DNA of 64,000 nt. It comes from an uncultured delta proteobacterium. Its GTDB lineage: Bacteria; Desulfobacterota; BSN033; UBA1163. This document shows, in pieces, positions 5,547-60,095 of the stretch. Location: contig CAVQFR010000041.1 of assembly GCA_963711845.1 (NCBI GenBank), positions 21,182 to 85,181 on the forward strand, in the 5' to 3' direction. The position numbers and the translations under genes were made by a program. Each line of letters begins with the position of its first letter. Position 1 is the first letter of the stretch. Under the pieces are notes generated by a model. It was not told where the DNA came from. It worked only from the letters and a program-made list of their open reading frames with translations, and did no database searches.

Positions 5547-5553
5547 CTGTTGT

Positions 5554-11089: not shown

Positions 11090-11299
11090 CCTCGCCCTGT
11101 TAGATAAGCAGCTATTTTTTAGAGAGAACCAGTTAAAATTTCAGCTCTCGAATGGCTGCAAAACAAATCAGGATTCTATCTAACAGGGCAAGTCGTCGCA
11201 GAATCCCTGTAGGGGCAATTCATAAATTGCCCCTACAATTTCCATATGGGCATTTTTGAGCAGCCTGAAAAGATTGTTCTCTCAATACCCTATTTTAAA

Positions 11300-13982: not shown

Positions 13983-15611
13983 TTAGAAGATGGAGGGTTC
14001 TTTAAACTCTCCGTAGACACCCTTAAAGACCTTTGTCATCTCACCCACAGTGGCATAAGCCTTACAGCATTCGAGAAGATAGGGCATGACGTTCTTCTCA
14101 GCCCTCGCAGCACTTTCGAGATCTTTCAGCAACTGTGAAACCTTTCGATTGTCCCTTTCGCGCTTCACCTCTCGAAGCCGCTGGACCTGTTCTTCTGCGG
14201 ATCCCAACCGGTATTCGTGGAGCTCAACCTCCATCTCTTCCCCTTCCGTATATTTATTTACTCCCACCTTGATCAACTCTCCCTTTTGGACCCCTTTCTC
14301 AAACTCGTAGGCCTGCCTCGCGACTTCTTTCTGAACGTAGCCCGTCTCAACGGCCTTGATCATCCCTCCCATTTCATCGACCCGCTTCATCTCCTCAATA
14401 ATTTTTTCCTCCATCTGTTTGGTCAAGGTTTCGATAAAGTAGGAACCCGCCAAGGGATCGACCGTATCCCTCAACCCAATCTCTTCCATCAGAATCTGGA
14501 ATGTCCTGAGAGAGAGGAGGGCTGCTCTGGGCGTTGGGATGGTGTAAGCTTCGTCAAAGGAACAGAGAGCAGTCGTCTGAGCGCCGCCTAAAGCCGCCGC
14601 CAGGGCATAGTACGCACCTCGAATGATATTGTTTTCGGGCTGGGCTTTGGTCATTCCATATCCGCCGCCGCCAAAGATTCCCCGCAAGAGGAGGGATCGA
14701 TTATCCTTGGCTCCGTAGCGCTCCTTCAGGTTTTTTGCCCAGAGTTTTCTTGCCGCACGGAACTTGGCTACTTGTTCCCAGAGGTTTCCAAAGACATTGA
14801 GGTTGAAGGTGAAGCCCCTGACAAAATCGTCGATGTGATGGCCACGGCGCAAGACTTCCTCGATATAGGTATTGGCAATCTGGAAGGCGTAAGCGATTTC
14901 CTGAACAGGAGAACAACCCGATTCGCGAATGTGATAACCACAAACACTGACAGGGTTGGTTCGGGGAAGTTCCTTCATCGAATATTCGATCGTATCACCG
15001 ATGAGACGTACGGCGGGTTTCACTGGAAAGATCCATGCTCCCCGTCCGATCATCTCTTTGAGAATATCGTTTTGAGGGGTAGCGCTCACTCGATCTTTTT
15101 TAAATCCATATTTTTCGGCAGTTGCCTGGAACATGGCCAGCATGATGCTTGCTACAGCATTGATGGTGAGGCCGGCGCCAATTCGGTCGAGTGGGATGCC
15201 CTGGAAGGCAACTTCGAAGTCTCTGAGAGAATCAACCGCCATACCTACCCTTCCCACCTCACCCTCCGCCAACGGGTCATCGGAATCGAGACCCATTTGG
15301 GTGGGAAGATCGAAGGCGACATTGAGACCGGTCTGGCCATGGGAGATCATCAGTTTGAAACGCTCATTGGTCTCTTTGGGCCTTCCGAAACCCGTATACT
15401 GCCGGGTGGTCCACTCCCGACTCCGGTAGCCAAGGGAATGGATTCCCCGGGTGTAAGGATATTCGCCTGGAAGACCTAAGTCCTTGTCCGGGTCAAAACC
15501 GATCGCTTCTAAATCCTTCTTCGTATAGAGAGGTTTGACGTGGATGCCAGATTGGAGGATCACATCCTGAACTTCGTCTTTCTCATTCTTGATATATTTT
15601 GCAACACCCAT
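13983..15611 (-). CDS. Acyl-CoA mutase large (substrate-binding TIM-barrel) subunit, methylmalonyl-CoA mutase family
   Basis: MCM catalytic-domain homology throughout. The likely start is ATG at 15611 with RBS GGGAG. The B12-binding domain is encoded separately, upstream. Confidence 0.85.
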   Translation of the reverse strand: MGVAKYIKNEKDEVQDVILQSGIHVKPLYTKKDLEAIGFDPDKDLGLPGEYPYTRGIHSLGYRSREWTTRQYTGFGRPKETNERFKLMISHGQTGLNVAFDLPTQMGLDSDDPLAEGEVGRVGMAVDSLRDFEVAFQGIPLDRIGAGLTINAVASIMLAMFQATAEKYGFKKDRVSATPQNDILKEMIGRGAWIFPVKPAVRLIGDTIEYSMKELPRTNPVSVCGYHIRESGCSPVQEIAYAFQIANTYIEEVLRRGHHIDDFVRGFTFNLNVFGNLWEQVAKFRAARKLWAKNLKERYGAKDNRSLLLRGIFGGGGYGMTKAQPENNIIRGAYYALAAALGGAQTTALCSFDEAYTIPTPRAALLSLRTFQILMEEIGLRDTVDPLAGSYFIETLTKQMEEKIIEEMKRVDEMGGMIKAVETGYVQKEVARQAYEFEKGVQKGELIKVGVNKYTEGEEMEVELHEYRLGSAEEQVQRLREVKRERDNRKVSQLLKDLESAARAEKNVMPYLLECCKAYATVGEMTKVFKGVYGEFKEPSIF

Positions 15612-15647
15612 AGTAAACTCCCAAAATCCGAATATCGAAATCTTCAC

Positions 15648-15860
15648 CCTGTTAAGTCATTCCGCCTGAAGTTGACGACTTTACTTTTCCTGGACGGATC
15701 GTGATACATCAAACCAAAAGCTACCCAAAACCTACTTAACAGGGCAGGCAAATCCGAAATTTAAATATCAAAATTCAAGAGGTTTCCGTTTGGGAAATTG
15801 GGTTTCTGGACATTTGTATTTGTTTCGGATTTCGTGCTTCGAATTTAAAGTTTTCCCCGA
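15648..15860. repeat. Intergenic heptad-periodic repeat element (same family as 2943-3203)
   Basis: aaaatccgaatatcgaaatc at about 15622-15642, caaatccgaaatttaaatatcaaaattc at about 15752-15780, and ggatttcgtgcttcgaatttaaag at 15820-15845. Confidence 0.6.
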
Positions 15861-16262
15861 TCAAGATCGGGGTTTAATATGTTCTTTGATCCATCGGATC
15901 GATTCGTCGAAAGAGGTTCCTCCGGGAAAGATGCCCTGGATCCCAATCTTTTGGAGAGGAGGGATATCCCGTTTGGGGATGACACCGCCAATGACTACCA
16001 GGATATCATCGATCTTCTTCTTTTCCATTTCCTTCATCAGTTTTTCACAGATCGGCAGGTGGGCTCCGGACATGATGGATAGGCCGATGACATCCACACC
16101 CTCCTGGATGGCGGTATGGGTGATCTGATCGATGGTCTGATGAAGGCCGGTGTAAATGACCTCCATCCCCGCATCACGGAGGGCTTGCGCCACCACTTTC
16201 GCCCCTCGATCATGACCGTCCAAACCAGGTTTTGCGACTAAGATACGAATTTTTTTCTCCAC
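15861..16262 (-). CDS. Cobalamin (B12)-binding small subunit of an acyl-CoA mutase
   Basis: 133 aa. B12-binding Rossmann domain with a DxHxxG-type motif (GLDGHDRGAKVVAQAL). Confidence 0.85.
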   Translation of the reverse strand: MEKKIRILVAKPGLDGHDRGAKVVAQALRDAGMEVIYTGLHQTIDQITHTAIQEGVDVIGLSIMSGAHLPICEKLMKEMEKKKIDDILVVIGGVIPKRDIPPLQKIGIQGIFPGGTSFDESIRWIKEHIKPRS

Positions 16263-16274
16263 CTCATCACTCCC

Positions 16275-16961
16275 TTAAGGAATCATTCTCCCCTCATCAA
16301 TTTCCCTTAAAACAAGTTCCTTGCCTCTCGCCAGATGCTTCCGGACAAGCCTTTCTGCCAATCTTGGGTTCTTCTTCTTCATCGCTTCCAACATCTGACG
16401 ATGGTCTTTATGGGAGGAGCTTACGCCATCTTGTATATGGAGCAAGGCAGACCGATACCGATAAAAATAGTCGCGGAAGGTATTGATCATCTCGACCAGT
16501 TTTTTGCTTTTACAGGATTTGTAGAGGAGATCATGGAATTCAGTGTTTAGCTGAACGACCTTATCATGGTCTCCTTTCTCCAAGGCATCCTCCGATTCCT
16601 TCAATTTATTCTCCAAAATGGAGATTTTGTCCGGGGCCATATGAAGGGTGGCTAAATAAGCAGCATAACTCTCGAGGGCACTCCGAATTCCAAAGATTTC
16701 CTCCACGTCCTCTTTTGTGAATTCCCTGACCGCAAAACCCCCTTTGGGAAGTCGGGTGACTAATTCATCCTTTTCCAGTTTGTGGAAAGCCTCTCTGACA
16801 GGGGTACGGCTGATTCCCGCGTGATCGGCCAATTGCTCCTCAATGAGATGCTGGCCGGGTTTCAATTTTCCGTGAAGAATAGATTTTCTTAATGACTCAT
16901 AGACTTCTTCCCGTAGGGATTTCTTTTTGCGGATCCGAAGGCCTCCTAATGTCGTTTCCAT
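16275..16961 (-). CDS. GntR family transcriptional regulator (FadR/FCD subfamily)
   Basis: 228 aa. N-terminal wHTH (ISRTPVREAFHKLEKDELV) followed by an FCD ligand domain. Divergent to the CoA-transferase gene. Confidence 0.9.
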   Translation of the reverse strand: METTLGGLRIRKKKSLREEVYESLRKSILHGKLKPGQHLIEEQLADHAGISRTPVREAFHKLEKDELVTRLPKGGFAVREFTKEDVEEIFGIRSALESYAAYLATLHMAPDKISILENKLKESEDALEKGDHDKVVQLNTEFHDLLYKSCKSKKLVEMINTFRDYFYRYRSALLHIQDGVSSSHKDHRQMLEAMKKKNPRLAERLVRKHLARGKELVLREIDEGRMIP

Positions 16962-40077: not shown

Positions 40078-41111
40078 TTATCCATGTTTGGCCTTTGACC
40101 GCAACCACCCCAGCACTTCGTTCATATCTTCAGGGATGGGGGAAACAAATTTCACCCTTTCTCCACTTCGAGGGTGGGTGAATTCCAATCGTCGGGCGTG
40201 AAGGGCCTGGCGATTCATTCTCTTCACACACTCTTTCAAAACAGGGTCATGGATCGCCCCGGGTCTCCCTTTTCTTCCGTAGAGAGGATCTCCCAAAACG
40301 GGATGACCAATGGAGGAGAGGTGCACCCGGATCTGATGGGTTCGGCCGGTCTGAGGAAAGATCTCAAGGAGAGTGCAGCACTCAAATTCCTCCACTTTCT
40401 TCCAGCGAGTGACGGCCGCCCTTCCTTTTCTCGTCCGGGTCGACATCCGCTTTCTCTCACTTGGGTGTCTTCCGATGGCCGAATCGATTAAGCCTTCGTT
40501 AGGGCCGAATCTTCCGTAGGCAACGGCAAATAGACCTTTTCCACGGTCCGGTTTCTAAACTGTTTGGTCAAATGATGAAAAGCTTCATCCTCTTTAGCGA
40601 CGACCATCACACCCGATGTGTCTTTGTCCAATCGGTGCACGATCCCTGGTCTTAAGACACCATTAATGCCGGCGAGATCTTTGCAATGGTAAAGAAGGGC
40701 ATTGACCAATGTGCCGGAGGGATTTCCATAAGCAGGATGGACAACCATTCCGGGAGGCTTGTCAATGACGATGAGGAACGGGTCCTCATACAGGACGGTC
40801 AGGGGAAGGGGTTCTGGTTGGAGAGAAAACGATTCAGGCTGGGGGAGGCTTCCTGAGATCCTATCACCCGCTTTTAGATGTGTACTGGGTTTGGTCGGTT
40901 TTTGATTTAAAAGGATGTGATGTTTCTGAATCAAAGTTTTTGCATGAGAACGGGAGAGATTGAGATCGGCTTCCGAGAGAAATTGGTCGAGGCGCCTTCC
41001 GTGATCCTTTTCCATGACTTGAATGGAGAAAGATAAGTTCCCCTCCCCCCTCTTTAGCAAAGGGGGGGTGGGGGGATTTTGGAATTTATTCTTTATGGAA
41101 TCTTGCATCAT
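40078..41111 (-). pseudogene. rluD: RluA-family 23S rRNA pseudouridine synthase (RluD-like) split by a frameshift between 40446 and 40490
   Basis: ORF 40488..41111 has the S4 and catalytic N-terminal part (...HRLDKDTSGVMVVAK...). ORF 40078..40446 has the C-terminal part (...CTLLEIFPQTGRTHQIRVH...). The two are in different frames. Confidence 0.7.
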
Positions 41112-42542
41112 TGCGGCTGGAGATATTTCAATGCCTTCTCAATTCCGGCAGCCAAAAGAGGGATTTCTTCATCGAAGACGGTTCTCATATCCAGAATCAA
41201 TTCCTCTTTGCTGATTCGAGAAATAATCGGGGGATCACTCTTCCGTAGATTTTCTTCAAGGCTGTTCACGGAAAAGTCGAGAGGTTTAATGGCAACGACC
41301 ATGGTTGGAAGTTCTTGAAGGGGAAGGGCTCCACCGCCCACCTGAGAGACATCTTCTTTCAAAGAGAACGTCATCCTTTCATTCGTCATCCTCGACAACC
41401 TTTTCAGCAACTGTTTTCCTCTCCTTTTTAGCTTCCTCGTATCCAAACTCAACATGCTAAGAACGGGAATCTCTTCCATGGCTCTCTTCTCGTCGAGGTA
41501 GAGAAGCAAGGTTGATTCAAGAGCGGCCAGGGTGAGTTTGTCGATGCGAAGGGCTCGGGTCAAGGGATTGATCTTGAAGAGGTCCAGAATTTTTTTCTTC
41601 CCCAGAATGATTCCCGCCTGTGGCCCTCCAAGGAGCTTATCGCCGCTAATGGTGACCGCATCCACACCGGTTTTGATGGTTTCTTGAACAGTAGGTTCTT
41701 TTTCTAATCCATATTGAGAGAGGTCCACGAGGCAGCCGCTTCCTAAATCATCCACGACAGGGAGCTGATGCTCCCTCCCCAGTTGGACCAGATCCTGCAG
41801 AGAGACTTCGGAAGTGAATCCCATCACTCTGAAATTACTGGTGTGAACCTTCAGAAGCAGAGCCGTGTGAGGGCCAATCGGCCTTTTGGTAATCGTTGAA
41901 GTGAGTACGATTGGTCGTCCCGACCTCCCTGAGCAAAGCCCCGCTTCGTTTCATGACATCGGGGATTCGAAAAGCTCCCCCGATTTCGACCAGTTCTCCT
42001 CTCGAAACGATCACCTCCTTGCCCTCTGCAAGCGTATTCAAGGCAAGTAAGACAGCCCCGGCATTATTGTTCACCACCAAGGCTGATTCTGCTCCTGACA
42101 GGCGGCAGAGAATCTCTTCCACATGGGTATAACGGTCTCCGCGTTCACCCCGATCCAGGTCATATTCTAAATTGGAATAGGTTTTGGAGACCTCCATCAG
42201 ATGTTTAATCGCAGAGGAATGGAGGGGAGCTCTTCCCAGATTGGTGTGGATGACCACCCCGGTCGCATTGATCACCCTGCGGAGGCGGGGCTGAATCTGA
42301 AGGTCGATCTCTTTCTGAAAAAGAGGATAGAGGTTCTCGAAAGAGAAGATGGCCTCTCCTCGTTGAGAGAGGTCTTGTTTGTGGAGGATGTCATCGCGCA
42401 GCCGTCCCAATCCCTTTCGGATGGCTTCGACCACGACATGGCGGGGATGGACCTTTAAGAGGTCAACGATCTCTGGCCTTGAGAGGAGTTCATCGACGCT
42501 GGGGATCTCACGGAGCACCTGTTGACGAAGGGATGGAGACAT
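41108..42542 (-). pseudogene. selA: L-seryl-tRNA(Sec) selenium transferase, split by a 1-nt frameshift near 41876
   Basis: N-part RVINATGVVIHTNLGRAPL...VVNNNAGAVLL...VSRGELVEIGGAFRIPDVM...VGTTNRTHFNDYQKA. The C-part continues ALLLKVHTSNFRVMGFTSEV...DDLGSGCLVDLSQYGL...GDKLLGGPQAGII only in another frame. Confidence 0.8.
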
Positions 42543-47476: not shown

Positions 47477-50400
47477 TTAGCTTTTTACCGGCTTCTTCGC
47501 CGGTTGTTTGGCCAATTTGCTTACATTGACCATGAATGCCTTCGATTCGGGGATCATCGTATTGGGATCCCCGATCGTCGGGGTGAGCAGATTGGCGCTC
47601 TCCCCACCATCCTTCGGATGGAGCCAGCCGAAATGCCAGGGAATTCCTACCTGGTGGACGGTCTGGCCGGCGATGTTGAAAGGCTTAAAACGGGAAGTGA
47701 CGATGGCCACTGCCTCAACTTTTCCCCGGGGCGACGCTACCATCACCCTGTCACCGTTCTTGATCTCTCTCAGTTTTGCCAGTTCCAGACTCATCTCGCA
47801 AAACATCTGAGGTTCAGCCTCGATGAGCCAAGGAAGCCAGCGGGTGAGAACTCCGGTCTGCCAGTGTTCAGTTACTCGATAGGTTGAGCAAACAAAAGGA
47901 TATTTGGGATCGCAAGTAAGGAACGTATCCAGGCCCCCTTCAAAAATTCTGACGACCGGATTGATCCTCTGGTTGGACATCAAGTTCTTTTCAATGGGAC
48001 ACTCCAGGGGTTCATAATGTTCGGGGAATGGCCCATCTTTCAGTCCAGGTCCGAAAATCGAGGCTACACCATCCGGTTTCATGATGAACGGATAGACTCC
48101 GGTGGTTCCCATCGGAGGCACGGCATTGTCGGGAACATCCCCTATCCATTTCTTTCCGGCCGCATCCCATTTGAGCAAGGGCCGTTTGGGATCCCTTGGA
48201 TTTCCATCCAGATCCACGGAAGCCCGGTTGTAGATGATCCTTCTGTTGAGTGGCCAACACCATGACCACTCAGGATAGAGGCCTAAACCCGTTGGATCGG
48301 TCTTCTTCCTCCGGGCGGCCATATTGCCAGCTTCGGTATAGCTGCCTGAATAGAGCCAGTCACCGCAGGAAGTGGTTCCATCATCGTTTAGAGGAACAAA
48401 ATTGGGAAGCAATTTACCAGTCGTGAGGTCGTAGCCATTGATCTCCTTGGCTACTTTGTGAATATCAAAATGACCGTTCGTCTCATAATCCCACTTTAAG
48501 TTCAAAATCGGCTCTGGAAAATCGCCCTTATCCTTCTCGTAGAGAGCTCGAACCTTCTTAAACAACTCATACATGATATCGCCATCAGGTTTGGCCACTC
48601 CTGGAGGATTGGCCGCTTTATAGCGCCACTGCATCCAACGGCCGCTATTGCTTATACTTCCTTCCTTTTCCAAAAAGGCTGCGCAAGGGAGCTGGAACAC
48701 TTCGGTTTTAATCTTCTTTGGATCCATTCCGGGGCCTTTCCAGAAAGACCCGGTCTCATTATCGAAGACATTCACATTGACCATCCAGTCAAGCTTCGTT
48801 AATGCTTGACGGGCCTTCCCCGCGTTGGCGCTTGAACAAGCCGGGTTCATACCCCACGCAAAGAAACCTGTGAAAGATCCTTTGTACATTTCGTCAAAGA
48901 GATTCAACCAGGAAGCGTCTTGACCTGTATCGAGTTTCGGCATCCAGGCATAACCGAATTCATTCTCTTTCGTGGCTTTATCCCCGAACATCGTTTTTAA
49001 GAAACTGGCCACATACTTAGGTCGGTTCTTCCACCAGTTGATACTCCGGGGATCCTTCGAGGCCGGCGTGGTTTTATTGTAATCGGCCAAGGTTGCTAAA
49101 TGAGCTTGGGGATTAGGTAAATATCCTGGCCAGATATGAAAGAGAAGGCCTGCATCGGTCGAGCCCTGAACATTCGATTCGCCTCGAAGGGCATTGACGC
49201 CTCCGCCTGCAATGCCCATATTTCCAAGAATCGATTGGATGATGGACATAGCCCGGATATTCTGAACGCCCACGGTATGTTGCGTCCACCCCATGGCGTA
49301 TAATACGGTTCCGGCTTTATCCGGAGCGCCGGTAGCCCCATAGGCCTTATAAACTTTTTCCAAATCTGCCATTGGAGTTCCTGTGATTTCCGAAACCTTC
49401 TGGAGCGTATAGCGGGAATAATGTTTTTTGAGAAGTTGTAAGGCACAACGAGGATCCTGCAGGCTCATATCCCTTTTGGGAATCCCCTGTTCATCCTTTT
49501 CTAATGCCCAGGTGGATGCATCATAGGCACGTTTCGTGGGATCATATCCCGAGAAGAGGCCATCATCGAATCCATATTTGGGATTCACGATGAAAGAGGC
49601 ATTGGTGTAGTTCTTGACGTAGAACTCATCGTAGAGATTGTTGTCCAGAATGTACTTGATCATGCCGCCCAGGAAAGCGATATCAGTCCCTGAACGAAGT
49701 CTGACAAAAATATCAGCTTTGGTGGATGTTCGAGTGAATCTTGGGTCCACATGGATAAAGGTTGCCCCTTTGTCTTTTGCCGCCTGAATCCATTTAAATG
49801 AAACGGGGTGGTTTTCTGCAACATTGCTACCCATGTTCAAAATCACATCAGCATTTCGAAAATCGTTGTAGTGATTGGTCATTGCACCGCGTCCGAACGA
49901 CTCTCCCAGAGCCGCTACAGTTGCGCTGTGTCAGATACGGGCCTGGTGTTCAATATAAACAAGGCCCAGGGACCTAAGAAACTTTTGATAGAGCCAACAT
50001 TCCTCGTTATCCAGGGCCGCGCTTCCCACAGAGGCGATGCCATTGGTTCGATTCACAACCTGGCCTTTTGCATTTTTCTCCATGAAACTCTTGTCGCGGC
50101 TCTTCTTGATGTTCGCTGCAATCTTGTTCAGAGCCCATTCCCAACCTACTTCTTTCCATGCAGCGCTCGAAGGAGCGCGGTAAAGGACTTTCTGCAAACG
50201 ATTGGGATTGACTGCGATTTGAAAGCTTGAACCCCCTTTCGGGCATAGGGCGCCTTCGTTGATGGGATGGTCGGGATCTCCCTCGGCATTGATCACCTTA
50301 CCTTTGGCTATCGGTATGGACGATAATTCCGCAGCCGACCGAACAGTAGCAGCAGACCGTGGTGGTTGCCTTGGCCCCTTTAATGCGCAATTCCTGGGCA

Positions 50401-50552
50401 TAGACCTCGGCCGGAGAAAGATCAAATCCCAGACCACCCATCACCGTCCCGGCGGCTGTTGCCCCCGAGATCTTCAAAAAGGTTCTTCGGTTAATCTTCA
50501 TAGATATTCCTTGGCCTCCTTTCTCAAATTTGGAGATGAGAGTTGAACTCAC
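47477..50552 (-). CDS. fdhA: Formate dehydrogenase catalytic subunit, Tat-exported, selenocysteine-containing (TGA at 49931-49933), with an apparent 1-nt frameshift near 50300
   Basis: Tat signal MKINRRTFLKISGATAAG. [4Fe-4S] motif CCYCSVGCG. Reading continues in frame through TGA as ...YIEHQARI-U-HSATVAALGESFGRGAMTNHYNDF..., matching the E. coli FdnG Sec motif QARV-U-HGPTV. The N-terminal 84 aa ORF (50298..50552) is in a different frame from the rest. Confidence 0.85.
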
Positions 50553-50858: not shown

Positions 50859-51436
50859 ATGAGGGCGATTTATTTGCCTATTGCAGCTGTCGGGCTGATA
50901 TCCTTAATCGTCTGCGATCTAAACCGGGCCGCCAACCTCCCTCCTGTAAAGGGAGGTGTACTGCCACTGATTACGCTTCCGGTCCCAGAAGATCCAGATG
51001 AGAAAGAATACCTAGGGCTATCTGGCGAGCAGTTTTTTCCGAATACCACAGATCAAAGCCAAAGTTGTCATCATTGAAATCTTCAGTACATACTGCCCGA
51101 AATGCCAAAAAATAGCACCCGGAATGGACAAGCTTTATTACCTTATTGAATCGGATCCAGGTCTTAGGAACAAAATTAAAATGATCGGTATCGGTGCCGG
51201 AGATTCGCGTTACGAGGTTGATGTGTTTAAGAAAACTTTCAATACTCCTTTTCCCCTCTTCCCAGACAACGATTTCACCATCCATAAAGCCCTGGGAGAC
51301 GTCAGGAGCCCTTACTTCATCGCAATCAAAATCAACAAAGATGGCACGTCATGAGGTCGTTCATTCGGAATTGGACAGCTTCGAAGAAGCCCGTGCATTT
51401 TTGGAGTTGATTATTACTGCCTCAGGCCTGAAGTAA
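50859..51436 (+). pseudogene. TlpA/ResA-like thiol:disulfide oxidoreductase (CPKC active site) disrupted by two frameshifts
   Basis: Three frames carry consecutive parts: ...LPLITLPVPEDPDEKEYLGLSGEQFF | RIPQIKAKVVIIEIFSTYCPKCQKIAPGMDKL...FPLFPDNDFTIHKALG...IKINKDGT | RHEVVHSELDSFEEARAFLEL. Shifts at the T6 run 51033-51038 and at about 51345. Confidence 0.65.
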
Positions 51437-51637: not shown

Positions 51638-52124
51638 TCAATAATACGTACTGACGACGATTTCTGGAGTTGCGGAGATGTCCACCGTCAAACCGTCTTT
51701 CGGTTCTTCGAGAGTATCTAACTGGCTTCTTAACAAATTCTTATCCATATAAGGATGTTGACGGTCTTCAACCCGTTTGCGCAGCAATTCATAGGAGCCT
51801 TTTAAATAGACTGTCCTCACGGTGTTCTGGTCAACGCCGAGGATATCCCGGTAAGCCTGTTTCAGGGCAGAACAAGCCAATATCGTGTTCTCTTTATTCT
51901 TTCAACCAGCGTTGTATATTCCCATACAAAATTTCCAACCAGAGTTTGCGGTCTTCATCGGTCAGGGCAATTCCAGCCCGCATCTTTTCAACATTCTTTT
52001 TTGGGTGAAAGTCATCCCCATCATAAAAAGACCAGCCGAGCCTCTCAGCGAGCATTTTCCCGATGGTTGTCTTACCACAGCCCATCGGCCCCATCAGTAT
52101 GAGTACCATAACTTCCTTTTCCAC
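51638..52124 (-). pseudogene. gntK: Gluconokinase (GntK/thermoresistant gluconokinase family), split by a frameshift near 51885
   Basis: N-part MGPMGCGKTTIGKMLAERLGWSFYDGDDFHPKKNVEKMRAGIALTDEDRKLWL. C-part ACSALKQAYRDIL...VYLKGSYELLRKRVEDRQHPYM...LDTLEEP. Both align to E. coli GntK as recalled from memory. Confidence 0.75.
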
Positions 52125-52149
52125 AACTTATTCAGTACCGAGACCCACT

Positions 52150-52244
52150 GCCATCCTGACAAGTCGGGATGACTTGAGGGTTCGAGGATTCAAGGGGTCA
52201 AGGGTTCGAGTGAATCTTTTCTATTCCTTTCGGAATTTGGATTC
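52150..52244. repeat. Intergenic periodic repeat (GAGGGTTCGAGGATTCAAGGGGTCAAGGGTTCGAG ...), same family as 7787-7868
   Basis: Direct sequence similarity of the GGGTTC octads. Confidence 0.55.
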
Positions 52245-53489
52245 TTATTCCAGGCGGTAAAGAATCTCACCGGCGTGGTCCACATAGAGGATGCCCTCAT
52301 CCTCCTTCCCCGTGTAATCCGCGATCCTGATCTCAGCCGGGTTCATATAACCCAAGTTGATCTGCTCGCATTTCTCTTTTGGAATGGCAGTCGCCAGTAC
52401 GACTTCAATCCGGGGTTTCTCAATGCCGTTTTGATAGATGCCGGTCCCGCACACATGGGTGGAATGGGCGAGAACACCTCTCGGAACATCTTTGAAATTC
52501 TCCATCTGAAACAGGAAGTAGTCCCGCACGTGGTATCCTATTTTTTCAATATAATCTCCCCAGGTACTCGAAACCCTGTCAATATGCGGAGCATAGATGA
52601 TCAGTCTACCATTGTCGGCGACCACCTGTTCCAGCTTGTACATCACTTTTCCGCCTGTCCAGATCTCGTCATACATTTCGGGCGCTCGGCCCAATACGGT
52701 CCGATAGGGTTTCTCTTTGACCACAATGTGAATTTTCGAGGACAAATCCGCAGCCGCAGACCATGCCTCTCTTACATCGCCGGCAAATAAGCCGTACAGC
52801 CCGGCATCCGGCTTGACCACCATGGCCAAACAATGAATGGGTAGGTTGATTTTTTCCATGGCCTTATGGATCACCTGTCGGACCGGAGTCTCTTTTTTCC
52901 CGATGATCTCTTTGCAGGTCATCACCGCTGACAGCCAGTGAAAAAAATGTAATAACTCGCCGCCCGAAATGCCCGGGAACAAGTATTTCGCGCCTCCGGA
53001 GAATCCGACGACTTCATGCGGGAAAACGGGTCCCAGAATGAGGATCAGGTCATAATCATAGATCTTTCTGTTAATCTCGATCGGCACCTTTTCCTTCAAA
53101 AGTCCACCGGAAATTCTTTCAACCTCTTCCTCGGACAGATATCCAATTTGGAGAAAGGTTTCCGGCAAATCCCAGCGATGGCAAAAAAATTCGGATCGAC
53201 CAAACTTCTCCTTCCTGTCTTGAGGGGTGATCCCATAAAGTTCCAAAATCTTCTCTTCAGACAAGGAGGGATGGGTTCCCACGGCTACCATGAAATCCAA
53301 TTTGGCAGCGCGTTCTCCAATCACCTCACGGACAGCACGAGTCATCATCGGCAGAGGGCAGGTCCTTGTCGCATCCGGCGTTAGGACCAGGACACGTTTT
53401 TTTTCATACAGGGTCGCGGGTGTTCCGGCTTCGATAATCTCTTTAGCCTTTTCTTCTGAAATGGACACGGCGGAGCTCCCCTTTCCCAT
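52245..53489 (-). CDS. LarA-family protein (nickel-pincer-dependent hydroxyacid racemase/epimerase superfamily, DUF2088)
   Basis: 414 aa. The N-terminal ...VLVLTPDATRTCP... matches the LarA DxTR motif. Size and architecture fit LarA. Flanked by gntK and a sugar ABC transporter. Confidence 0.65.
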   Translation of the reverse strand: MGKGSSAVSISEEKAKEIIEAGTPATLYEKKRVLVLTPDATRTCPLPMMTRAVREVIGERAAKLDFMVAVGTHPSLSEEKILELYGITPQDRKEKFGRSEFFCHRWDLPETFLQIGYLSEEEVERISGGLLKEKVPIEINRKIYDYDLILILGPVFPHEVVGFSGGAKYLFPGISGGELLHFFHWLSAVMTCKEIIGKKETPVRQVIHKAMEKINLPIHCLAMVVKPDAGLYGLFAGDVREAWSAAADLSSKIHIVVKEKPYRTVLGRAPEMYDEIWTGGKVMYKLEQVVADNGRLIIYAPHIDRVSSTWGDYIEKIGYHVRDYFLFQMENFKDVPRGVLAHSTHVCGTGIYQNGIEKPRIEVVLATAIPKEKCEQINLGYMNPAEIRIADYTGKEDEGILYVDHAGEILYRLE

Positions 53490-53491
53490 GG

Positions 53492-54322
53492 TCAGTCTTT
53501 CAAAGCACCCATGGTCAGTCCCTGAACAATTGTTCTCCGTACGAAGAATGCAAACACGGAAACCGGCAGCACGATCAGGGTCGCCGCGGCGCCGATCCCG
53601 GCCCAGTCGATCTTTCCGTAGGAGATGAAGTTATATACTGCCACCGGCACGGTTTTCGTCTTCGGGCCGGAGAGGATCAGCGAGAAGAGAAACTGGTTCC
53701 ACGAGAAGATGAAGGACAGTATCGCCGAAGTGGCGATGCCGTTTCGCACCAGGGGGAGCACGATTATGAGAAAACTCTGCAGGCGGGAACACCCGTCGAT
53801 CATGGCCGCGTCTTCCAGTTCCTCCGGCATCCCCTCGAAGAAGGAGACCATCACCCAGATCACCATGGGCAGGGTGATGATCAAATGGGTGATCGTAAGG
53901 GCCGTGTAGGTGTCGATGAGCTTCAGGTGACGGAAGATGATGTACCAGGGCAACAGGTAGCTCACAAACGGCGTCATCCGGGCGACGAGGATGAGGATGC
54001 CGATCTTTCCTTGCCGGTATTTGGCGATGGAATAGGCTGCCGGCAGCCCCAACACCAGTGAAACACCCGTGGCCAGGCCGGCGACGATGAGACTGTTCAT
54101 CAGGTATCTGAAAAAATTGTATTGTTGAAATACCGCCCTGAAGTTCTCCAGCGTAGGCCTAAAAATGAACTCCGGAGGATAGGAGATGTTTTGCACTCCG
54201 GTCTTGAGCCCCGTCAGGATCATCCAGACGAACACGAATACCGGCGGCACACACAGGGCGACAGCCCCCGCGTAAAAAAAGGTCGATTTAATCGTTTTCG
54301 TCATTCCGGTTCCGGTTATCAT
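53492..54322 (-). CDS. Carbohydrate ABC transporter permease (MalG/UgpE-like)
   Basis: 276 aa, six TM helices, EAA-loop-containing permease. Confidence 0.85.
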   Translation of the reverse strand: MITGTGMTKTIKSTFFYAGAVALCVPPVFVFVWMILTGLKTGVQNISYPPEFIFRPTLENFRAVFQQYNFFRYLMNSLIVAGLATGVSLVLGLPAAYSIAKYRQGKIGILILVARMTPFVSYLLPWYIIFRHLKLIDTYTALTITHLIITLPMVIWVMVSFFEGMPEELEDAAMIDGCSRLQSFLIIVLPLVRNGIATSAILSFIFSWNQFLFSLILSGPKTKTVPVAVYNFISYGKIDWAGIGAAATLIVLPVSVFAFFVRRTIVQGLTMGALKD

Positions 54323-54363
54323 CTCTTACATATTCGCGCTTCTGATTGCAGGGCCACCTCCGG

Positions 54364-55305
54364 TTAGATATCTTGTGCCCTGAGCCGCATTCGGTTCATG
54401 ACCACATTGAACGCCAGGACGATCAAAAAGACGACCACCATGAGGGCCGAGCCGTACCCGGCCTTGAAGAAACTGAACCCGACATTGTAGGAATACAGAT
54501 AGAGCGTCTCGGACGAGATGCCCGGCCCCCCCTGGGTGATGGTGTAGATCATATCAAACTCCTTGAGGTTGTCCAGAGACCGCAGCATCAATGCTGCAAT
54601 CAGCACCGGCCGGATCAGGGGAAGGGTGATGTGCCAGAAGATCTGAAGCGCGTTGGCCCCGTCGATTCGCGCGGCCTCGTAGGGATCATGGGGCAGGGAT
54701 TTGAGGCCCGCCAGCACGATGAGGGTGATCATGGGGGTCCACTTCCACACGTCGACCATCACCAGGGCCGGAATCACTGTCATCGGGCTGCTGACCCACA
54801 GGCTTCCCGGAAGGCCGAGGCTTTGAAGCAAATAGTTCATGACCCCGATTTCGGGGTTGAGCATGATCCGCCAGATCAACGCGACGGCCACCGGCGTGGC
54901 TGCGAACGGAAAAATATAAATCGCCTGGACGATCTCGCTGCCCTTGAATTCGCGGTTGAAATAAACTGCGATGAGAAGTCCCAGCACCAGCTCGAGGGAA
55001 AGGCTCAGGCCACTGAAATAGACCATCACCTTCATGCCGTTTAAGACGCGCTCATCCGAGAAAAGTTCGATGAAGTTGCCGAAGCCGATAAATTTCGGCT
55101 GCCCCAGTCCGATGGTCCACTTGGTAAAGGTCAGATACAGGTTATACGCGATGGGAATGATGACGATGAAGAACAGGGCGGTCACCGCAGGCGCTGGGTA
55201 GACAAGAGCCTGGTGGCGATCCATGAATCGGCTGAGTGCGCTGGGAGCGGTCTTCATGACGGTGGTTTTTGTCCCGACCATGGGGTGCCGGGATCTGTCC
55301 GCCAA
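54364..55305 (-). CDS. Carbohydrate ABC transporter permease (MalF/UgpA-like)
   Basis: 313 aa ABC type-1 permease. Confidence 0.85.
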   Translation of the reverse strand: MADRSRHPMVGTKTTVMKTAPSALSRFMDRHQALVYPAPAVTALFFIVIIPIAYNLYLTFTKWTIGLGQPKFIGFGNFIELFSDERVLNGMKVMVYFSGLSLSLELVLGLLIAVYFNREFKGSEIVQAIYIFPFAATPVAVALIWRIMLNPEIGVMNYLLQSLGLPGSLWVSSPMTVIPALVMVDVWKWTPMITLIVLAGLKSLPHDPYEAARIDGANALQIFWHITLPLIRPVLIAALMLRSLDNLKEFDMIYTITQGGPGISSETLYLYSYNVGFSFFKAGYGSALMVVVFLIVLAFNVVMNRMRLRAQDI

Positions 55306-55337
55306 GCAGAGGCAAACAGATCCCGGCCGTTTGAAAG

Positions 55338-56642
55338 CTATCGTTCCATCTTCCTATCCATCAATTCGGCTGCTTTCTTAGCCGAGGCGGCCACATCCTT
55401 GCCTTCGATGGCGTCCACGATCACCTGGCCGGTGATATCTCGGATCTCGGGGACGTTGATAACGGGCGGGTTCCACTGGGGCTGGCCGATCTCAAAAGAC
55501 TTCATCGTGCTTGACGTCCAGTCCGGATGGTCGTCTTTGGATTTATATTCCTTGGAAGTCCACGCCGACGCCCTTCCAGCCGGCACCCCGGCCAGGAGCG
55601 CGCCCAGAGAATTATTTTTGTTGGTGGCCCACTGGATGAATAGCCAGGCTGCCTTTTGCCGCTCAGGGGTGCTGGTTTTGCTGATCGAGAGACTCCAGTT
55701 GGAAACATGGGGCAGCCTGCCTGCCGGACCGGCCGGGATAACAGCATACCCCACTTTCCCGGCAACCTTGGACTCCTTGGGGTTTTCATACAATGCCTTG
55801 AACACGTTGGCGTCGTAGATCATGGCCGCTTTGCCTTCCATGAACATGGACGTGCTTTCGGCCCAGTGGAGCATTGTGCCGCCCTGGGGACCATAGTTTC
55901 TCAGCAGGTCTCCGTAAAACTTAAAAGCTGCGATGTTCTGGGGCGAGGCGAAGTTCGACTTACCCTGGGGAGTGGTCCATGAACCACCGAAGCTGTACAG
56001 GAAGTCAACCCACTGGGACGTAGCCGCAGCTCCCTTTCCTCTCAAGGTAATGCCGACCATCTTCTTGCCATCGACCTCCTTGCCGTAGAAAAACTTGGCC
56101 GTCTGTTCAAGTTCTTTCATCGTTTGAGGGACCTTAACCTTGAACTTTGTAAACAGATCCTTGCGATAGGCCAAAAGGGATGTCTCGGCATTGATCACGA
56201 TGCCAATCAGCTTGCCATCCATCGACGAGGCCTTTGCAAAACTGGGGAAGAAGTCCTTAAAATTCCAGTCTGCCTCGGTCAGGGCGGGGTCTGAGTTGTA
56301 TCCATCCATGGGCTGCAGCCATCCCGCTTTCCAATAGTGGAGATCATCCTGACCCGGCATAATCATGTACCCATCCACCTTGCCTCCGGCATTAAGTTCG
56401 ATCGTCCGTTTGTTCCGGTATTGATCCTCCGGAAAAGCTTCGATCGTCACTTTGATGCCGGTCAACTTTTCGAACTCGGGCACCTTTGGTTCTATAAACG
56501 TGGTAAAGGGATGCTTGTTCATCAGAAAACGGATCTCGGTGCCCTGGAGCTGCTTCCAGTTTACTGCTCCGAGGGCGATCGAAGAAAATGCCCCCACACA
56601 AATCAGAGCGACCAGCGATAAACATACCATTCTTCTTTTCAT
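55338..56642 (-). CDS. ABC transporter extracellular solute-binding protein (family 1, sugar-type)
   Basis: Signal peptide MKRRMVCLSLVALICVGAFSSIALGA. Start ATG at 56642 after GAGGAGG. Confidence 0.85.
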   Translation of the reverse strand: MKRRMVCLSLVALICVGAFSSIALGAVNWKQLQGTEIRFLMNKHPFTTFIEPKVPEFEKLTGIKVTIEAFPEDQYRNKRTIELNAGGKVDGYMIMPGQDDLHYWKAGWLQPMDGYNSDPALTEADWNFKDFFPSFAKASSMDGKLIGIVINAETSLLAYRKDLFTKFKVKVPQTMKELEQTAKFFYGKEVDGKKMVGITLRGKGAAATSQWVDFLYSFGGSWTTPQGKSNFASPQNIAAFKFYGDLLRNYGPQGGTMLHWAESTSMFMEGKAAMIYDANVFKALYENPKESKVAGKVGYAVIPAGPAGRLPHVSNWSLSISKTSTPERQKAAWLFIQWATNKNNSLGALLAGVPAGRASAWTSKEYKSKDDHPDWTSSTMKSFEIGQPQWNPPVINVPEIRDITGQVIVDAIEGKDVAASAKKAAELMDRKMER

Positions 56643-56715
56643 GTTCTGCCTCCTCTTTAATAAGTTTTGAGATTCCGTCGTCAGACCGATCGTCTGCCGA
56701 GATGAATCTTTCGAT

Positions 56716-57819
56716 TTACACAATGGTTTGCGACGTCTTCTTATCGAAGATATGGGTTTTGGACATCTTGAGGTCCACCTCTAATGTTTGGCCCACGGTC
56801 CATGGCCGTTCCGGGGACTCCATTCGAGCGACGATGGCATGAGGTCCGCAGGTCAGATAAACAAAGGTTTCAGATCCAAGGGGTTCCACCACATCCGCTC
56901 GTGCCGTGAGGGTGTTTCCGTGGACGCCGGCTGCTGCAGGGGTGCGTTCCGCCACATCCTCGGGCCGAACACCGAATATGACCTGTCGGCCGGCATAGGG
57001 TTCGATTCTGGGATAGAACGCCTCAGGCAGCCTTACCTTAAAACCGACAGCGTCTATGAAATAGGCGTTCTCTTCGTGGATCAGCGTGGCTTCGATAAAG
57101 TTCATGGCGGGTGAGCCGATAAACCCTGCGACGAACCGATTGGTCGGCTGCTTATAGACCTCCAGGGGCGCCCCGGATTGCTGCAGGGTGCCATTATGCA
57201 TGATGAAGATCCGATTGGCCATGGTCATGGCCTCCACCTGATCGTGGGTGACGTAGATAATCGTGGCCCCCAGTCGCCGGTGTAGTTTGCTGATCTCGGC
57301 CCGCATGGCCACCCGCAGCTTGGCGTCCAAGTTGGAGAGCGGCTCGTCAAACAGAAATACCTTTGGCTTACGCACGATCGCCCTTCCCACTGCCACGCGC
57401 TGCCGCTGCCCTCCCGAGAGCTGTTTCGGTTTTCGGTCCAGAAGTTCATGGATGCCGAGGATGTCGGCCGCCTCCTGCACACGCTCGTCGATTTCTTCCT
57501 TTGGAAACTTGCGCATTTTCAGCCCGAATCCCAGATTTTCCCCGACATTCATGTGAGGGTAGAGAGCGTAATTCTGAAAGACCATCGCGATGTCCCGATC
57601 CTTGGGCGCGACGTCGTTCACCAGGCGGTCGCCGATATAGATCTCGCCGGATGTTATAGGCTCGAGGCCGGCGATCATTCGGAGGGCTGTGGTCTTACCG
57701 CATCCGGAGGGCCCCACCAGCACTGCAAATTCGCGGTCCTGGACTTCAATGCTCAGGCTGTCAACCGCCGTCACCGACTTGAATCGTTTCGTTACGTTTC
57801 TCAGGATGACATTCGCCAC
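56716..57819 (-). CDS. ABC transporter ATP-binding protein (MalK/UgpC-type, with a C-terminal TOBE domain)
   Basis: Walker A GPSGCGKTT, signature LSGGQRQR, Walker B FLFDEPLSNLD. Confidence 0.9.
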   Translation of the reverse strand: MANVILRNVTKRFKSVTAVDSLSIEVQDREFAVLVGPSGCGKTTALRMIAGLEPITSGEIYIGDRLVNDVAPKDRDIAMVFQNYALYPHMNVGENLGFGLKMRKFPKEEIDERVQEAADILGIHELLDRKPKQLSGGQRQRVAVGRAIVRKPKVFLFDEPLSNLDAKLRVAMRAEISKLHRRLGATIIYVTHDQVEAMTMANRIFIMHNGTLQQSGAPLEVYKQPTNRFVAGFIGSPAMNFIEATLIHEENAYFIDAVGFKVRLPEAFYPRIEPYAGRQVIFGVRPEDVAERTPAAAGVHGNTLTARADVVEPLGSETFVYLTCGPHAIVARMESPERPWTVGQTLEVDLKMSKTHIFDKKTSQTIV

Positions 57820-58009
57820 GTCCTCTGCCTCTTTTCAGTTTGTCTGAAAATCGAGAATGCAGGATTTAGAATTCAGTCGCCAGAAGTAAGGGTTAGGGAA
57901 GTATCCTTTTCTCTTCCAGGATTCTGACTCGTGACTTCTGGATTCCATTTTCATCATGCCCGGCTATCGAGGATGACTATTTTCCCAATATTCCTTTACA
58001 ACGAATTGC

Positions 58010-58864
58010 CTAAATAGAATAAGATGAAAACCCACCATCGACGGGCACGACCACGCCGGTGACGAAACTGGAAGCATCTGAAAGCAGCCAGACGAGGGTG
58101 CCAATCAGATCCTCCGGCTGGCCAAACCGTCCCATGGGCGTGTGCGCGATTGCCTTATCGCCGCGGGGCAAGAGGTCGCCCGTCTTCTGATTCACAAGCA
58201 AGAACTTATTCTGCTCGGTCATAAAAAAACCCGGCGCCAGAGCGTTGACACGGACGCCCGTGCGCGAAAAATGGACTGCCAGCCACTGCGTGAAGTTGCT
58301 CACCGCCCCCTTGGCTGCCGAATAGGCAGCCACTTTTGTGAGCGGTGTGAAGGCGCTCATGGAAGAAATGTTGACGATTGATCCCTGGCCCTTCTTGACC
58401 ATCCCCTGTGAAAAGACCTGGCTCACGAGAAACGTCCCCATGAAATTGAGATCAAACACCTGGCGGAATCCGGCCGGATCCAGATCAAAAAACGATTGGG
58501 CTGCCGGATCGGGCGATCCTGCGTGACGGTGGAATTCTTCGGAAGTGGTGGCACGAGGGTGGTTGCCGCCAGCGCCGTTGATCAGAAAATCAGGCGGGCC
58601 CCATAAGCTGCAAACCGCCTCGTGGCACTCCCGGACCTGATCCTTATCGAGCACGTCGCACCGAAACGCCTTGGCGGTTCCTCCGGACTGTGTGACGGCG
58701 AACGACCGGGCTTCGGCCTTTTTCAGGTCGATATCCAGCACAGCCACCTTCACGCCCATCGCACCCAGGGCTTCAGCCATGGCGCCGCACAAATCACCCC
58801 CGCCGGCGGTGATCGCGGCAACTTTTCCGTCGAGATCAAAACTTTTCAAGATATCGCTTTTCAT
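58010..58864 (-). CDS. SDR-family oxidoreductase (sugar-acid dehydrogenase-like)
   Basis: Rossmann motif GKVAAITAGGGDLCGAMA and catalytic YSAAK. Start ATG at 58864 after AAAGGAG. Confidence 0.8.
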   Translation of the reverse strand: MKSDILKSFDLDGKVAAITAGGGDLCGAMAEALGAMGVKVAVLDIDLKKAEARSFAVTQSGGTAKAFRCDVLDKDQVRECHEAVCSLWGPPDFLINGAGGNHPRATTSEEFHRHAGSPDPAAQSFFDLDPAGFRQVFDLNFMGTFLVSQVFSQGMVKKGQGSIVNISSMSAFTPLTKVAAYSAAKGAVSNFTQWLAVHFSRTGVRVNALAPGFFMTEQNKFLLVNQKTGDLLPRGDKAIAHTPMGRFGQPEDLIGTLVWLLSDASSFVTGVVVPVDGGFSSYSI

Positions 58865-58884
58865 TCCACCTGTACTCCTTTCAA

Positions 58885-59919
58885 TCACAATCCGCCCTGG
58901 TTTTGGACAAAGGTCATCACTTCTTCCCAGAAGGGCATGGAGATAGAGCAGCCGTGCCGGCTGGCAACCATTGCGCCGCAGGCGTTACCCAGTCGGCAGG
59001 CCTTCCGGAGGTCCCATTCCTTCACATACCCGTACAGGAACCCTGCGCCGAATGCGTCTCCGGCACCCAGGATGTTCTGAACCGTTACCGCAAATCCGGG
59101 TACGTCCTCTGCCGCCCTATCGCGCTGATGGACCCGGCAACCATGTCTGCCGCGCTTCTCCACCACCACCCGGGGTCCCCTTTCCAAAAGGGCGCGAACA
59201 TGCTCGGCCGTGTTTCCGATCACCCGGGCATCGGTCACCTGGGAATGGGTCAGCCGGACAGCCTGCGGGTCGGTCAGCATGGCGGCATTAATTTCATCCT
59301 CGGTACCCATAATGATATCCACGCAAGGAAGGGCGGAACGAACTGCGGCGCCGTAAGCACGGGGGTCGTTCCACTGGTCTGGCCGGAAGTCCAGGTCGAG
59401 GACAACGGTTGTGCCAGCTTTTTTGGCAATTTCCGCTCCGTACAGAGTGGCGCCCCGGCTCGGGTCTTTGCTCAGATTCGTGCCGGCAAACTGAAACACA
59501 CTGCTGTCGGTAACGGGAGCCGCCAGCACATCATCGATGTCCAGGGCGATATCGGCACAGTTATCCCGGTAAAAGACCAACGGAAACTTGTCAGGAGGCT
59601 CGATGCCCAGGACGACGAGGCTGGTGTGCCGGCCCGGTTTTCGGGGGCTGAATTGGACGTTCACTCCTTCCTTCTTCAGAAAATGGACAACGAAGTCGCC
59701 GACGGGATCTTCGCCAAAGGCGGTCAGTAAGGCCGATTTCAGTCCCAGCCTGCGGCACCCGACGCTCATGTTGGTGGGGGACCCACCCACATAGGCGGCA
59801 AAGCTTTTGATATCAACAAAGTCGGCCCCCACATCGTTGCTGTAAAGGTCCATGCAGGATCGGCCCATGTGAAACGTGTCATAAGTGCGCTGATCCTGGC
59901 GGGGGTCTTGGTGTTTCAT
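58885..59919 (-). CDS. PfkB-family carbohydrate kinase (2-dehydro-3-deoxygluconokinase / KdgK-like)
   Basis: Ribokinase-fold motifs (...GGSPTN... and GAGDAFGAGFLYG). Overlaps the SDR gene by 4 nt. Confidence 0.8.
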   Translation of the reverse strand: MKHQDPRQDQRTYDTFHMGRSCMDLYSNDVGADFVDIKSFAAYVGGSPTNMSVGCRRLGLKSALLTAFGEDPVGDFVVHFLKKEGVNVQFSPRKPGRHTSLVVLGIEPPDKFPLVFYRDNCADIALDIDDVLAAPVTDSSVFQFAGTNLSKDPSRGATLYGAEIAKKAGTTVVLDLDFRPDQWNDPRAYGAAVRSALPCVDIIMGTEDEINAAMLTDPQAVRLTHSQVTDARVIGNTAEHVRALLERGPRVVVEKRGRHGCRVHQRDRAAEDVPGFAVTVQNILGAGDAFGAGFLYGYVKEWDLRKACRLGNACGAMVASRHGCSISMPFWEEVMTFVQNQGGL

Positions 59920-60095
59920 TCTATGATTTTCAGCTTTTCTGGCTGGTTAAGTTCTCAAAACTGGATAAAAACCCGCTCATGATAACAATAAGAACTTGCT
60001 CTTAGGTGAGTTGAATATAACGAAAAATGGAGTTGTATGTCAACCTGAGAGACCACGGGGAAAATGCTTCTTGAAAACAGATTTCTCGAGAATGA

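Follow-up and report, generated by a model that had tools for sequence, protein, structure and literature searches.

The logic of the gntE-gntK pathway was reportedly proposed in 2012. Its enzymatic demonstration came in 2020, and GntE1, GntE2 and LarAH15, all homologs of LarA, epimerize unphosphorylated D-mannonate in vitro (Desguin et al., 2020; PMC7583248). Enzymes of the LarA family act by proton-coupled hydride transfer on a nickel-pincer nucleotide (NPN) tethered to a lysine; D-mannonate-to-D-gluconate activity has been measured for groups 19 and 20 of the family, and a genomic link to uronic acid metabolism was noted for group 19 (Desguin et al., 2020; PMC7583248). Thermotoga and Corynebacterium have already provided examples of both the enzyme type and the pathway logic. 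We describe here a LarA homolog (LarAH) from a 64,000-nucleotide stretch of DNA of an uncultured delta proteobacterium (GenBank assembly GCA_963711845.1, contig CAVQFR010000041.1, positions 21,182 to 85,181 of the forward strand), called the window below, to which all coordinates refer unless a related locus is named. The gene lies in a tight array of eight genes on the minus strand (51638-59919), and its product is well supported as a predicted NPN-dependent D-mannonate/D-gluconate 2-epimerase of group 19. New here are the group 19 sub-clade to which it belongs, the architecture of its operon, and a clearer physiological context for the group.

Three described systems are comparable. In Thermotoga maritima, the gnd-uxaR-uxaE-uxaD-gntE-gntK operon adjoins the aguEFG ATP-binding cassette (ABC) transporter (PMC3750489). 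Its set of a fructuronate reductase of the short-chain dehydrogenase/reductase (SDR) family, a LarA-family 2-epimerase (GntE2, TM0442, LarAH20, PDB 4NAR), gluconokinase, 6-phosphogluconate dehydrogenase (Gnd) and a CUT1 importer resembles the present system; the window operon itself lacks UxaE and Gnd and has an additional IolC-like kinase. GntE2 belongs to a different LarAH group, is 34% identical to the window protein, and has E-S in the substrate loop where the latter has E-V. In the L-gulonate pathway of Haemophilus influenzae (GulPQM, GulD, UxuB, UxuA, KdgK, KdgA), UxuB, which links fructuronate with D-mannonate and is adjacent to KdgK, oxidizes D-mannonate at C5 (PMC5788505). Both loci place a transporter and a UxuB-type protein beside a sugar-acid kinase, but the transporter is of the tripartite ATP-independent periplasmic (TRAP) type in H. 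influenzae and of the ABC type in the window, the window operon has no GulD-like dehydrogenase, and a LarA-family epimerase with a gluconokinase stands in the place of UxuA, which dehydrates mannonate to 2-keto-3-deoxygluconate (KDG). The galacturonate pathway of Lactobacillus suebicus uses a mannonate kinase followed by a 6-phosphomannonate 2-epimerase, both activities being present in cell extracts with no gene assigned to either (PMC6978723). It too links mannonate to 6-phosphogluconate and pentose-phosphate metabolism, with the order of steps reversed relative to the one proposed here.

Identity of the LarA homolog

The LarA homolog (52245-53489, minus strand) has 414 residues and a Lar_N domain (PF09861, E=2.8e-18). 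Its top match among solved structures is T. maritima GntE2, aligned over the full length (residues 10-413, E=7e-63); the next matches reach only about 40 bits, and 2YJG, 5HUQ and 6D6Z are also matched. In a profile alignment with ten family members, D39, R42, H73, H158, K168, H184 and K281 correspond to D72, R75, H108, H174, K184, H200 and K298 of Lactobacillus plantarum LarA, and these seven residues are invariant across the ten aligned sequences. Loss of the lysine and histidine residues that bind the NPN would have told against an enzyme of this kind, as the original prediction had recognized, and all of them are present. Together with them, the key residues of the protein comprise the H158-E159-V160 stretch, W277, T278, and G338/L340/A341/S343/T344/H345.

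Each LarAH group is described by a signature of 20 positions, given in a supplementary table of Desguin et al. (2020; PMC7583248), and that of group 19 is D R H H E V K H V W T A K G L A S T H R. At these positions the window protein has D39, R42, H73, H158, E159, V160, K168, H184, V203, W277, T278, G280, K281, G338, L340, A341, S343, T344, H345 and C347, and agrees with group 19 at 18 or more of the 20 positions, the C-terminal ones (353-362) having been placed by eye on the conserved "LAHSTH" motif. At signature position 297 it has G, as does the group 19 member Plabr_2258, and at position 362 it has Cys against Arg, at a site that varies within the group (R/H/T/S/A/K). Identity is highest to group 19 members, namely Plabr_2258 (50%), Npun_F5335 and Rcas_3031 (47% each) and C. 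glutamicum GntE1 (37%), followed by GntE2 of group 20 and by members of group 18 (26-31%). In a neighbor-joining tree, computed without bootstrap and with reference sequences that end at about 400 residues, the window clade falls inside group 19 beside Plabr_2258. Placement among the characterized homologs by signature and by tree thus gives the same group. The window protein shares both its active-site signature and its tree clade with GntE1 of Corynebacterium glutamicum (LarAH19, "G2E2").

A different assignment is suggested by the best NCBIfam match, the LarAH18 model NF052594 ("putative hexonate epimerase"), with 191.9 bits where 500 are required. Groups 19 and 20 are not represented by a model in NCBIfam, and the window protein reads W-T-G-G-K where group 18 has W-L-G-N-K. 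Membership of group 18 was rejected on the published signature table and the tree, which make this top match misleading.

The family is abundant: metagenomic sequences that are at least 70% identical number in the thousands. A scan of species-representative genomes returned 80 loci, all from Thermodesulfobacteriota or Spirochaetota, including Desulfopila aestuarii DSM 18488, and the window protein belongs to a new, separate sub-clade of group 19 from these two phyla. A look-up of its exact sequence gave no recorded match, and its nearest relatives are from uncultured metagenome-assembled genomes (MAGs) labeled Syntrophaceae (L004, 93%).

Genomic context and proposed route

Neighboring genes were compared over 83 related loci, in which open reading frames (ORFs) were clustered and the cluster representatives annotated. 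A UxuB-like SDR accompanies the LarAH in 46 of them, and glucuronate isomerase (UxaC) is found near it in 40, usually immediately downstream. Gnd is a neighbor in 35 loci, a gluconokinase (GntK) in 33 (by tblastn), tagaturonate epimerase (UxaE) in 29 (PF16257, 465 bits) and a TRAP transporter in 20-25, while KduI and Eda each occur in 13. Locus L058, SDR-LarAH-UxaC-GntK-Gnd-UxaE-TRAP, is typical, and the whole set matches the genes of the T. maritima gnd-uxaE-uxaD-gntE-gntK operon. The orthologs flanked by UxaC, UxaE, the UxuB-like SDR, GntK and Gnd are 58-75% identical to the window LarAH. Aldarate enzymes such as glucarate dehydratase do not recur among these neighbors. Since the conversion of mannonate to gluconate is the sole step of a UxaC/UxaE/SDR/GntK/Gnd route that has no other candidate enzyme, the context favors D-mannonate to D-gluconate for the LarAH, and supports this as the probable physiological reaction of the clade. 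Whether in the UxaC-UxaE-SDR-GntK-Gnd form or in the ABC-SDR-PfkB-GntK form of the window, it points there more clearly than could be concluded for GntE1.

The window operon has neither UxaC, UxaE nor a TRAP transporter, and carries an ABC importer and a PfkB-family kinase instead. Its exact eight-gene order was found only in a Syntrophaceae-like lineage (L001, L004, L005, L006, L009) and in Desulfosarcinaceae (L003/L008, L013, L014), the latter version having Gnd after GntK; the operon is kept in at least nine genomes of two orders. A third architecture is present in L080 (1540-11299 of that locus), where a GFO-family oxidoreductase, a Zn-type alcohol dehydrogenase and an ABC transporter accompany LarAH, GntK and Gnd, so that different dehydrogenases stand ahead of the same epimerase-kinase core.

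The best explanation, which we consider fairly probable as a whole, is that 51638-59919 forms one operon for the uptake and catabolism of a six-carbon sugar acid. The CUT1 ABC transporter, with its polyol-type solute-binding protein (SBP), would import the substrate, for which a hexonate (D-mannonate or L-gulonate) and a 5-keto or uronate precursor are candidates. The UxuB-type SDR would interconvert D-fructuronate (5-keto-D-mannonate) and D-mannonate, and the LarA homolog would invert C2 of D-mannonate to give D-gluconate. In the predicted reaction, NPN held covalently on K168, its nickel also bound by H184, would take a hydride from C2 to give a 2-keto intermediate and deliver it back on the other face, H73 and H158 serving as acid and base. 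The GntK-type kinase would then convert D-gluconate to 6-phosphogluconate, for the pentose-phosphate or Entner-Doudoroff pathway. The IolC-like PfkB kinase would most likely serve a parallel branch, acting on KDG that a UxuA encoded elsewhere would form from mannonate, or on the 5-keto acid itself. The complete sequence of import, SDR, epimerase, GntK and PfkB side branch is, in our judgment, likelier to be right than wrong by a fair measure. The original prediction that the LarA homolog epimerizes an aldonic acid, such as D-mannonate, before phosphorylation by gluconokinase is supported because three independent lines of evidence agree: residue conservation, the LarAH group, and the neighboring genes in dozens of genomes. 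These lines, like the gene content of the operon, are direct observations.

From them we infer which substrate is used, in which direction the SDR works and what the PfkB kinase contributes to the route, and three further proteins bear on these points. The PfkB-family kinase (58885-59919, minus strand, 344 residues; PF00294, E=3e-44) is of the IolC (5-dehydro-2-deoxygluconokinase) type, scoring 373.4 bits on TIGR04382 (cut-off 300). Its best PDB matches are 3PL2 and 2QCV. It had been called KdgK-like, which does not hold at the level of family, as the KdgK models NF052444 and NF040938 give 41 and 89 bits against a cut-off of 400; as a statement of function the name is plausible, the same kinase being found elsewhere beside UxuA, KduI and Eda. 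The substrate of IolC, 5-dehydro-2-deoxy-D-gluconate, is the 2-deoxy analog of D-fructuronate and of 5-keto-D-gluconate. Genes of the IolG, IolE, IolD or IolB type do not recur among the neighbors of the module in about 170 loci, and the partners that do recur are hexonate enzymes. Orthologs of the kinase adjoin KduI, Eda and UxaC in L074, and UxuA and an aldolase in L090. KDG or a 5-keto-hexonate could be its substrate.

The SDR (58010-58888, minus strand) is a classical member of the UxuB/YjmF "D-mannonate oxidoreductase" (fructuronate reductase) subfamily, matching PRK08277 over its full length with 385.3 bits (cut-off 281). Its best solved relative is PDB 4WUV (E=2.7e-81, about 50% identity), which we take to be the H. 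influenzae D-mannonate oxidoreductase; T. maritima 1VL8 follows at E=1.7e-36. The periplasmic CUT1 SBP (55338-56642, minus strand; SBP_bac_1, E=8e-32) has a signal peptide and 434 residues, a length taken from its homologs (434-435 residues), since the mechanical ORF extends to 56723. Among solved structures, 5IAI and 4RYA (a sorbitol SBP by name) come closest, at E of about 1e-34. This likeness fits a linear polyhydroxy ligand and does not separate a hexitol from a hexonate. Reading the substrate from the structures of these relatives was therefore set aside as not decisive, as only polyol or disaccharide binders are found, at about 1e-34.

If the proposed route is correct, the nickel-pincer D-gluconate 2-epimerase route reaches sulfate-reducing and syntrophic Thermodesulfobacteriota and Spirochaetota of anoxic sediments. 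To our knowledge, these organisms are not usually regarded as consumers of sugar acids. Group 19 would gain a much clearer physiological context than GntE1 provides, the native substrate of that enzyme having been doubted. The current understanding of the LarA enzyme family is unchanged by the finding.

The putatively mobile module and the alternative readings

A search with the binding protein indicated that PfkB-SDR-ATPase-SBP-permease-permease is a module of its own. It occurs apart from any LarA homolog in L084-L092 and L093-L172 (for example, at 6994-13084 of L084 and 6784-13131 of L086). Between contigs, its proteins share 76-98% identity, and some of these contigs are labeled Burkholderiales or Rhodocyclaceae, labels that come from MAG binning; a recent horizontal transfer among members of wetland and sediment communities is suggested. 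The second permease is followed by LarAH-GntK in 12 loci, by GntK alone in four and by UxuA (mannonate dehydratase) in three, and otherwise by Gnd, a HAD hydrolase or nothing. Two of the three loci joined to UxuA also have a divergently transcribed aldolase of the LacD/DUF2090 type (357 bits on PRK12858), and in L084 a divergent GntK-type kinase lies beside the module (176 bits on TIGR01313). Because these variable partners are almost all hexonate enzymes, the module is argued to deliver mannonate and/or gluconate. Should that hold, a small mobile ABC-SDR-PfkB module wired to differing hexonate enzymes is a natural experiment for finding its substrate.

The variant of L090 (4676-13221 of that locus), seen also in L144, L152 and L169, joins the module to UxuA and a divergent class I aldolase of the LacD/DUF2090 type. 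It resembles the H. influenzae pathway further than the window operon does, through the addition of UxuA and the aldolase. The pairing of the IolC-like kinase with such an aldolase hints at a branch in which a keto-acid phosphate is cleaved.

In the window, the six genes of the module (53492-59919) have a GC content of 0.558 and GC at third codon positions (GC3) of 0.67-0.79, against a GC3 mean of 0.533 (sd 0.063, maximum 0.625) for the other 48 ORFs of 130 residues or more (Mann-Whitney p=4e-8). The GC-rich block ends exactly at the junction of the second permease and the LarAH; the LarA homolog (GC3 0.59) and gntK have a composition typical of the window. The horizontal acquisition suggested earlier for a GC-richer block is thus borne out in part, since the block is real and comprises the PfkB-SDR-ABC genes, to the exclusion of the LarA homolog and gntK. 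The same step is present in L001, L004, L005 and L006, and flanking synteny is shared with L001 and L004. Desulfosarcinaceae show no such step, the entire operon being GC-rich there together with its flanks. The acquisition would be older than the divergence from relatives with 80-93% identity. The simplest reading of composition and distribution is that the module came from a donor of higher GC content and was then joined to LarAH-GntK before these relatives diverged.

Several observations weigh against a single hexonate route through the LarA homolog. The D-mannonate/D-gluconate activity predicted for this clade is drawn from comparative context. For D-mannonate, the KM of GntE1 is 120 mM, which led its authors to suspect another native substrate (Desguin et al., 2020; PMC7583248). 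Lacking UxaC and UxaE, the window operon does not account for where fructuronate or mannonate would come from. The closest solved relatives of the SBP bind neutral polyols; the module occurs apart from any LarAH, in some cases with GntK directly behind it, so a common substrate for both halves of the operon is not required; and the gluconokinase is not intact as assembled (see below). Finally, the cofactor genes larB, larC and larE were found neither in the window nor beside any of 172 related loci. LarB, LarC and LarE domains are missing from the window ORFs scanned, 42-51 kb being covered by synteny with the annotated locus L001 and a crude motif scan, which agrees with the original prediction; a crude regular expression detected no ORFs with LarC- or LarE-like motifs up to 10 kb from any of these loci.

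These points feed four alternatives to a mannonate epimerase within one hexonate operon. The LarAH could act on another C6 sugar acid, be it another hexonate pair or a pair of aldarates or uronates (for example, D-glucarate/D-mannarate), with GntK working on a later product. The high KM of GntE1, the only characterized member of group 19, invites this reading, as do the 37% identity between GntE1 and the window protein and the C for R at position 362. We nevertheless regard it as unlikely, given that mannonate to gluconate is the only missing step among the flanking genes of the 58-75% identical orthologs and that aldarate enzymes do not recur there. Slightly less credible is the combination of two separate modules, in which PfkB-SDR-ABC would turn a polyol into a ketose and a ketose phosphate, and LarAH-GntK would be an unrelated resident mannonate/gluconate module that is merely co-transcribed. 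Operons of a polyol SBP, a dehydrogenase and a PfkB ketose kinase are a common pattern, the composition steps exactly at the permease/LarAH junction, the six-gene module stands alone in other genomes, and its SBP resembles polyol binders. However, the partners that vary behind the module (LarAH-GntK in 12 loci, GntK alone in four, UxuA in three, and Gnd) are all hexonate enzymes, the SDR scores above the cut-off of the mannonate oxidoreductase subfamily, and the fusion is kept in two orders with gene spacing of 2-23 nt.

Less probable again is a scheme in which phosphorylation comes first, the PfkB or GntK-like kinase making 6-phosphomannonate and the LarAH being a 6-phosphomannonate 2-epimerase. 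It has a precedent in the two L. suebicus activities, the operon does encode two kinases, characterized GntE enzymes have millimolar KM values for free mannonate, and in L132 and L133 the order is permease-LarAH-Gnd with no GntK between. Against this, GntE1, GntE2 and LarAH15 all act on unphosphorylated D-mannonate in vitro, and L132 and L133 are short contigs that end in or just past Gnd, so that GntK may lie beyond. A lactate racemase, as most homologs are labeled by the JGI ("nickel-dependent lactate racemase") in the automatic annotation of metagenomes, is very improbable, with 68.5 bits on NF033504 against a cut-off of 460, E159-V160 in the substrate loop where lactate racemases have F-F, W/T in place of Y294/Q295, and a neighborhood from which lactate-related genes are absent.

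Beyond the mannonate-to-gluconate operon preferred here, there is a small chance that the locus holds an undescribed route of strictly anaerobic Thermodesulfobacteriota. Either the mobile module would import a hexonate or reduced uronate and the LarAH would merge C2 epimers into gluconate, or the LarAH would be the so far unidentified 6-phosphomannonate 2-epimerase, with the IolC- or GntK-like kinase as the mannonate kinase. In the hexonate version, the import might be L-gulonate, or the mannonate/gluconate pair obtained by reducing the alginate monomers D-mannuronate and L-guluronate.

Operon structure, gluconokinase and other genes of the window

The eight-gene minus-strand array described in the original prediction was recovered with every gene in its place, and the family scans agree with it, including a complete sugar-type ABC transporter encoded by adjacent genes that fit the CUT1 type. 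Its ATPase (56716-57819, minus strand) is of the MalK/UgpC type with ABC_tran, OB_MalK and TOBE_2 domains (NF008653, 487 bits against a cut-off of 432). The SBP gene is followed by those of permease 1 (MalF/UgpA/GlcT-like, 54364-55305, minus strand; BPD_transp_1, E=1.6e-23) and permease 2 (MalG/UgpE/GlcU-like, 53492-54322, minus strand; BPD_transp_1), the last gene of the GC-rich block. Spacing between genes ranges from a 4-nt overlap, that of the SDR ORF with the PfkB stop codon, up to about 190 nt, with 2 nt between the stop codon of permease 2 and the start codon of the LarAH. A candidate operon promoter (TTGACA-18-TATATT, 11/12; 60014-60043, minus strand) lies about 95 nt upstream of the first gene and is the best sigma-70-like match of the region; it is a consensus match only, and promoter-like sites are not above shuffled sequence (nine, with 6.0 +/- 2.7 expected). 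No riboswitch or leader RNA was returned when 50-61.5 kb was scanned against Rfam, and terminator-like sites in the operon region do not exceed the chance level. The stretch between the LarA homolog and gntK (52125-52244) contains short direct repeats (CTCGAACCCT ... CCTCGAACCCT), and an alignment across it shows 92% identity to L004 overall. In L001, the nickel chaperone genes hypA and hypB are situated just downstream of the operon (12548-13596 of that locus); they are missing at this place in the window and in L004.

The GntK/IdnK-type P-loop gluconokinase (51638-52124, minus strand), with a probable start at the ATG at 52109, is read in the assembly as two ORFs in different frames (51894-52124 and 51638-51880). 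The shift is confined to 51894-51901 (minus strand), and a DNA alignment with relatives shows a 1-nt insertion, an extra A, that splits the gene. The window reads ...GAAAGAATAAAG..., against ...GAAAGA-TAAA... in L004 and L005; L001 and L006 are also one base short at this site, in a different local sequence, so that none of the four nearest relatives has the extra base. On TIGR01313 (cut-off 113.75), the fragments of the assembled gene reach 82.8 and 62.6 bits, and removal of one A gives a protein of 161 residues with 160.1 bits. The gluconokinase expected in the array is thus divided over two ORFs in the assembly rather than forming one; in the relatives it is intact. Because the extra base is absent from the four relatives and three more genes of the window are frameshifted, the split is most likely an indel error of the assembly.

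These three are selA (41835-41950) and an rluD-like pseudouridine synthase gene (40488-40554), both frameshifted against intact orthologs in L005, and an AhpC/TSA-like gene frameshifted near 51350 (within 51124-51436) against the intact ortholog in L001. With four such cases among about 55 window genes, a real gntK pseudogene was set aside as the leading view.

Other genes of the window belong to different systems. The alpha subunit of a formate dehydrogenase (47477-50437, minus strand) appears as two ORFs in the same frame with a TGA between them at 49931-49933 (...ARI-TGA-HSATV...), probably encoding selenocysteine; FdhE and a 4Fe-4S subunit come next, and selA lies about 6 kb from the formate dehydrogenase. 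An unrelated catabolic cluster (2475-13486, minus strand) encodes the 2Fe-2S and FAD subunits of a xanthine-dehydrogenase-type enzyme, a TRAP transporter (DctPQM, 4239-7165), a universal stress protein, an AMP-forming ligase, and the A and B subunits of a hydantoinase/oxoprolinase. It is followed at 13983-16961 by methylmalonyl-CoA mutase and a GntR/FCD regulator. A gene of the 23S rRNA intervening-sequence protein family (PF05635), at 2009-2431, has a markedly low GC content (0.357).

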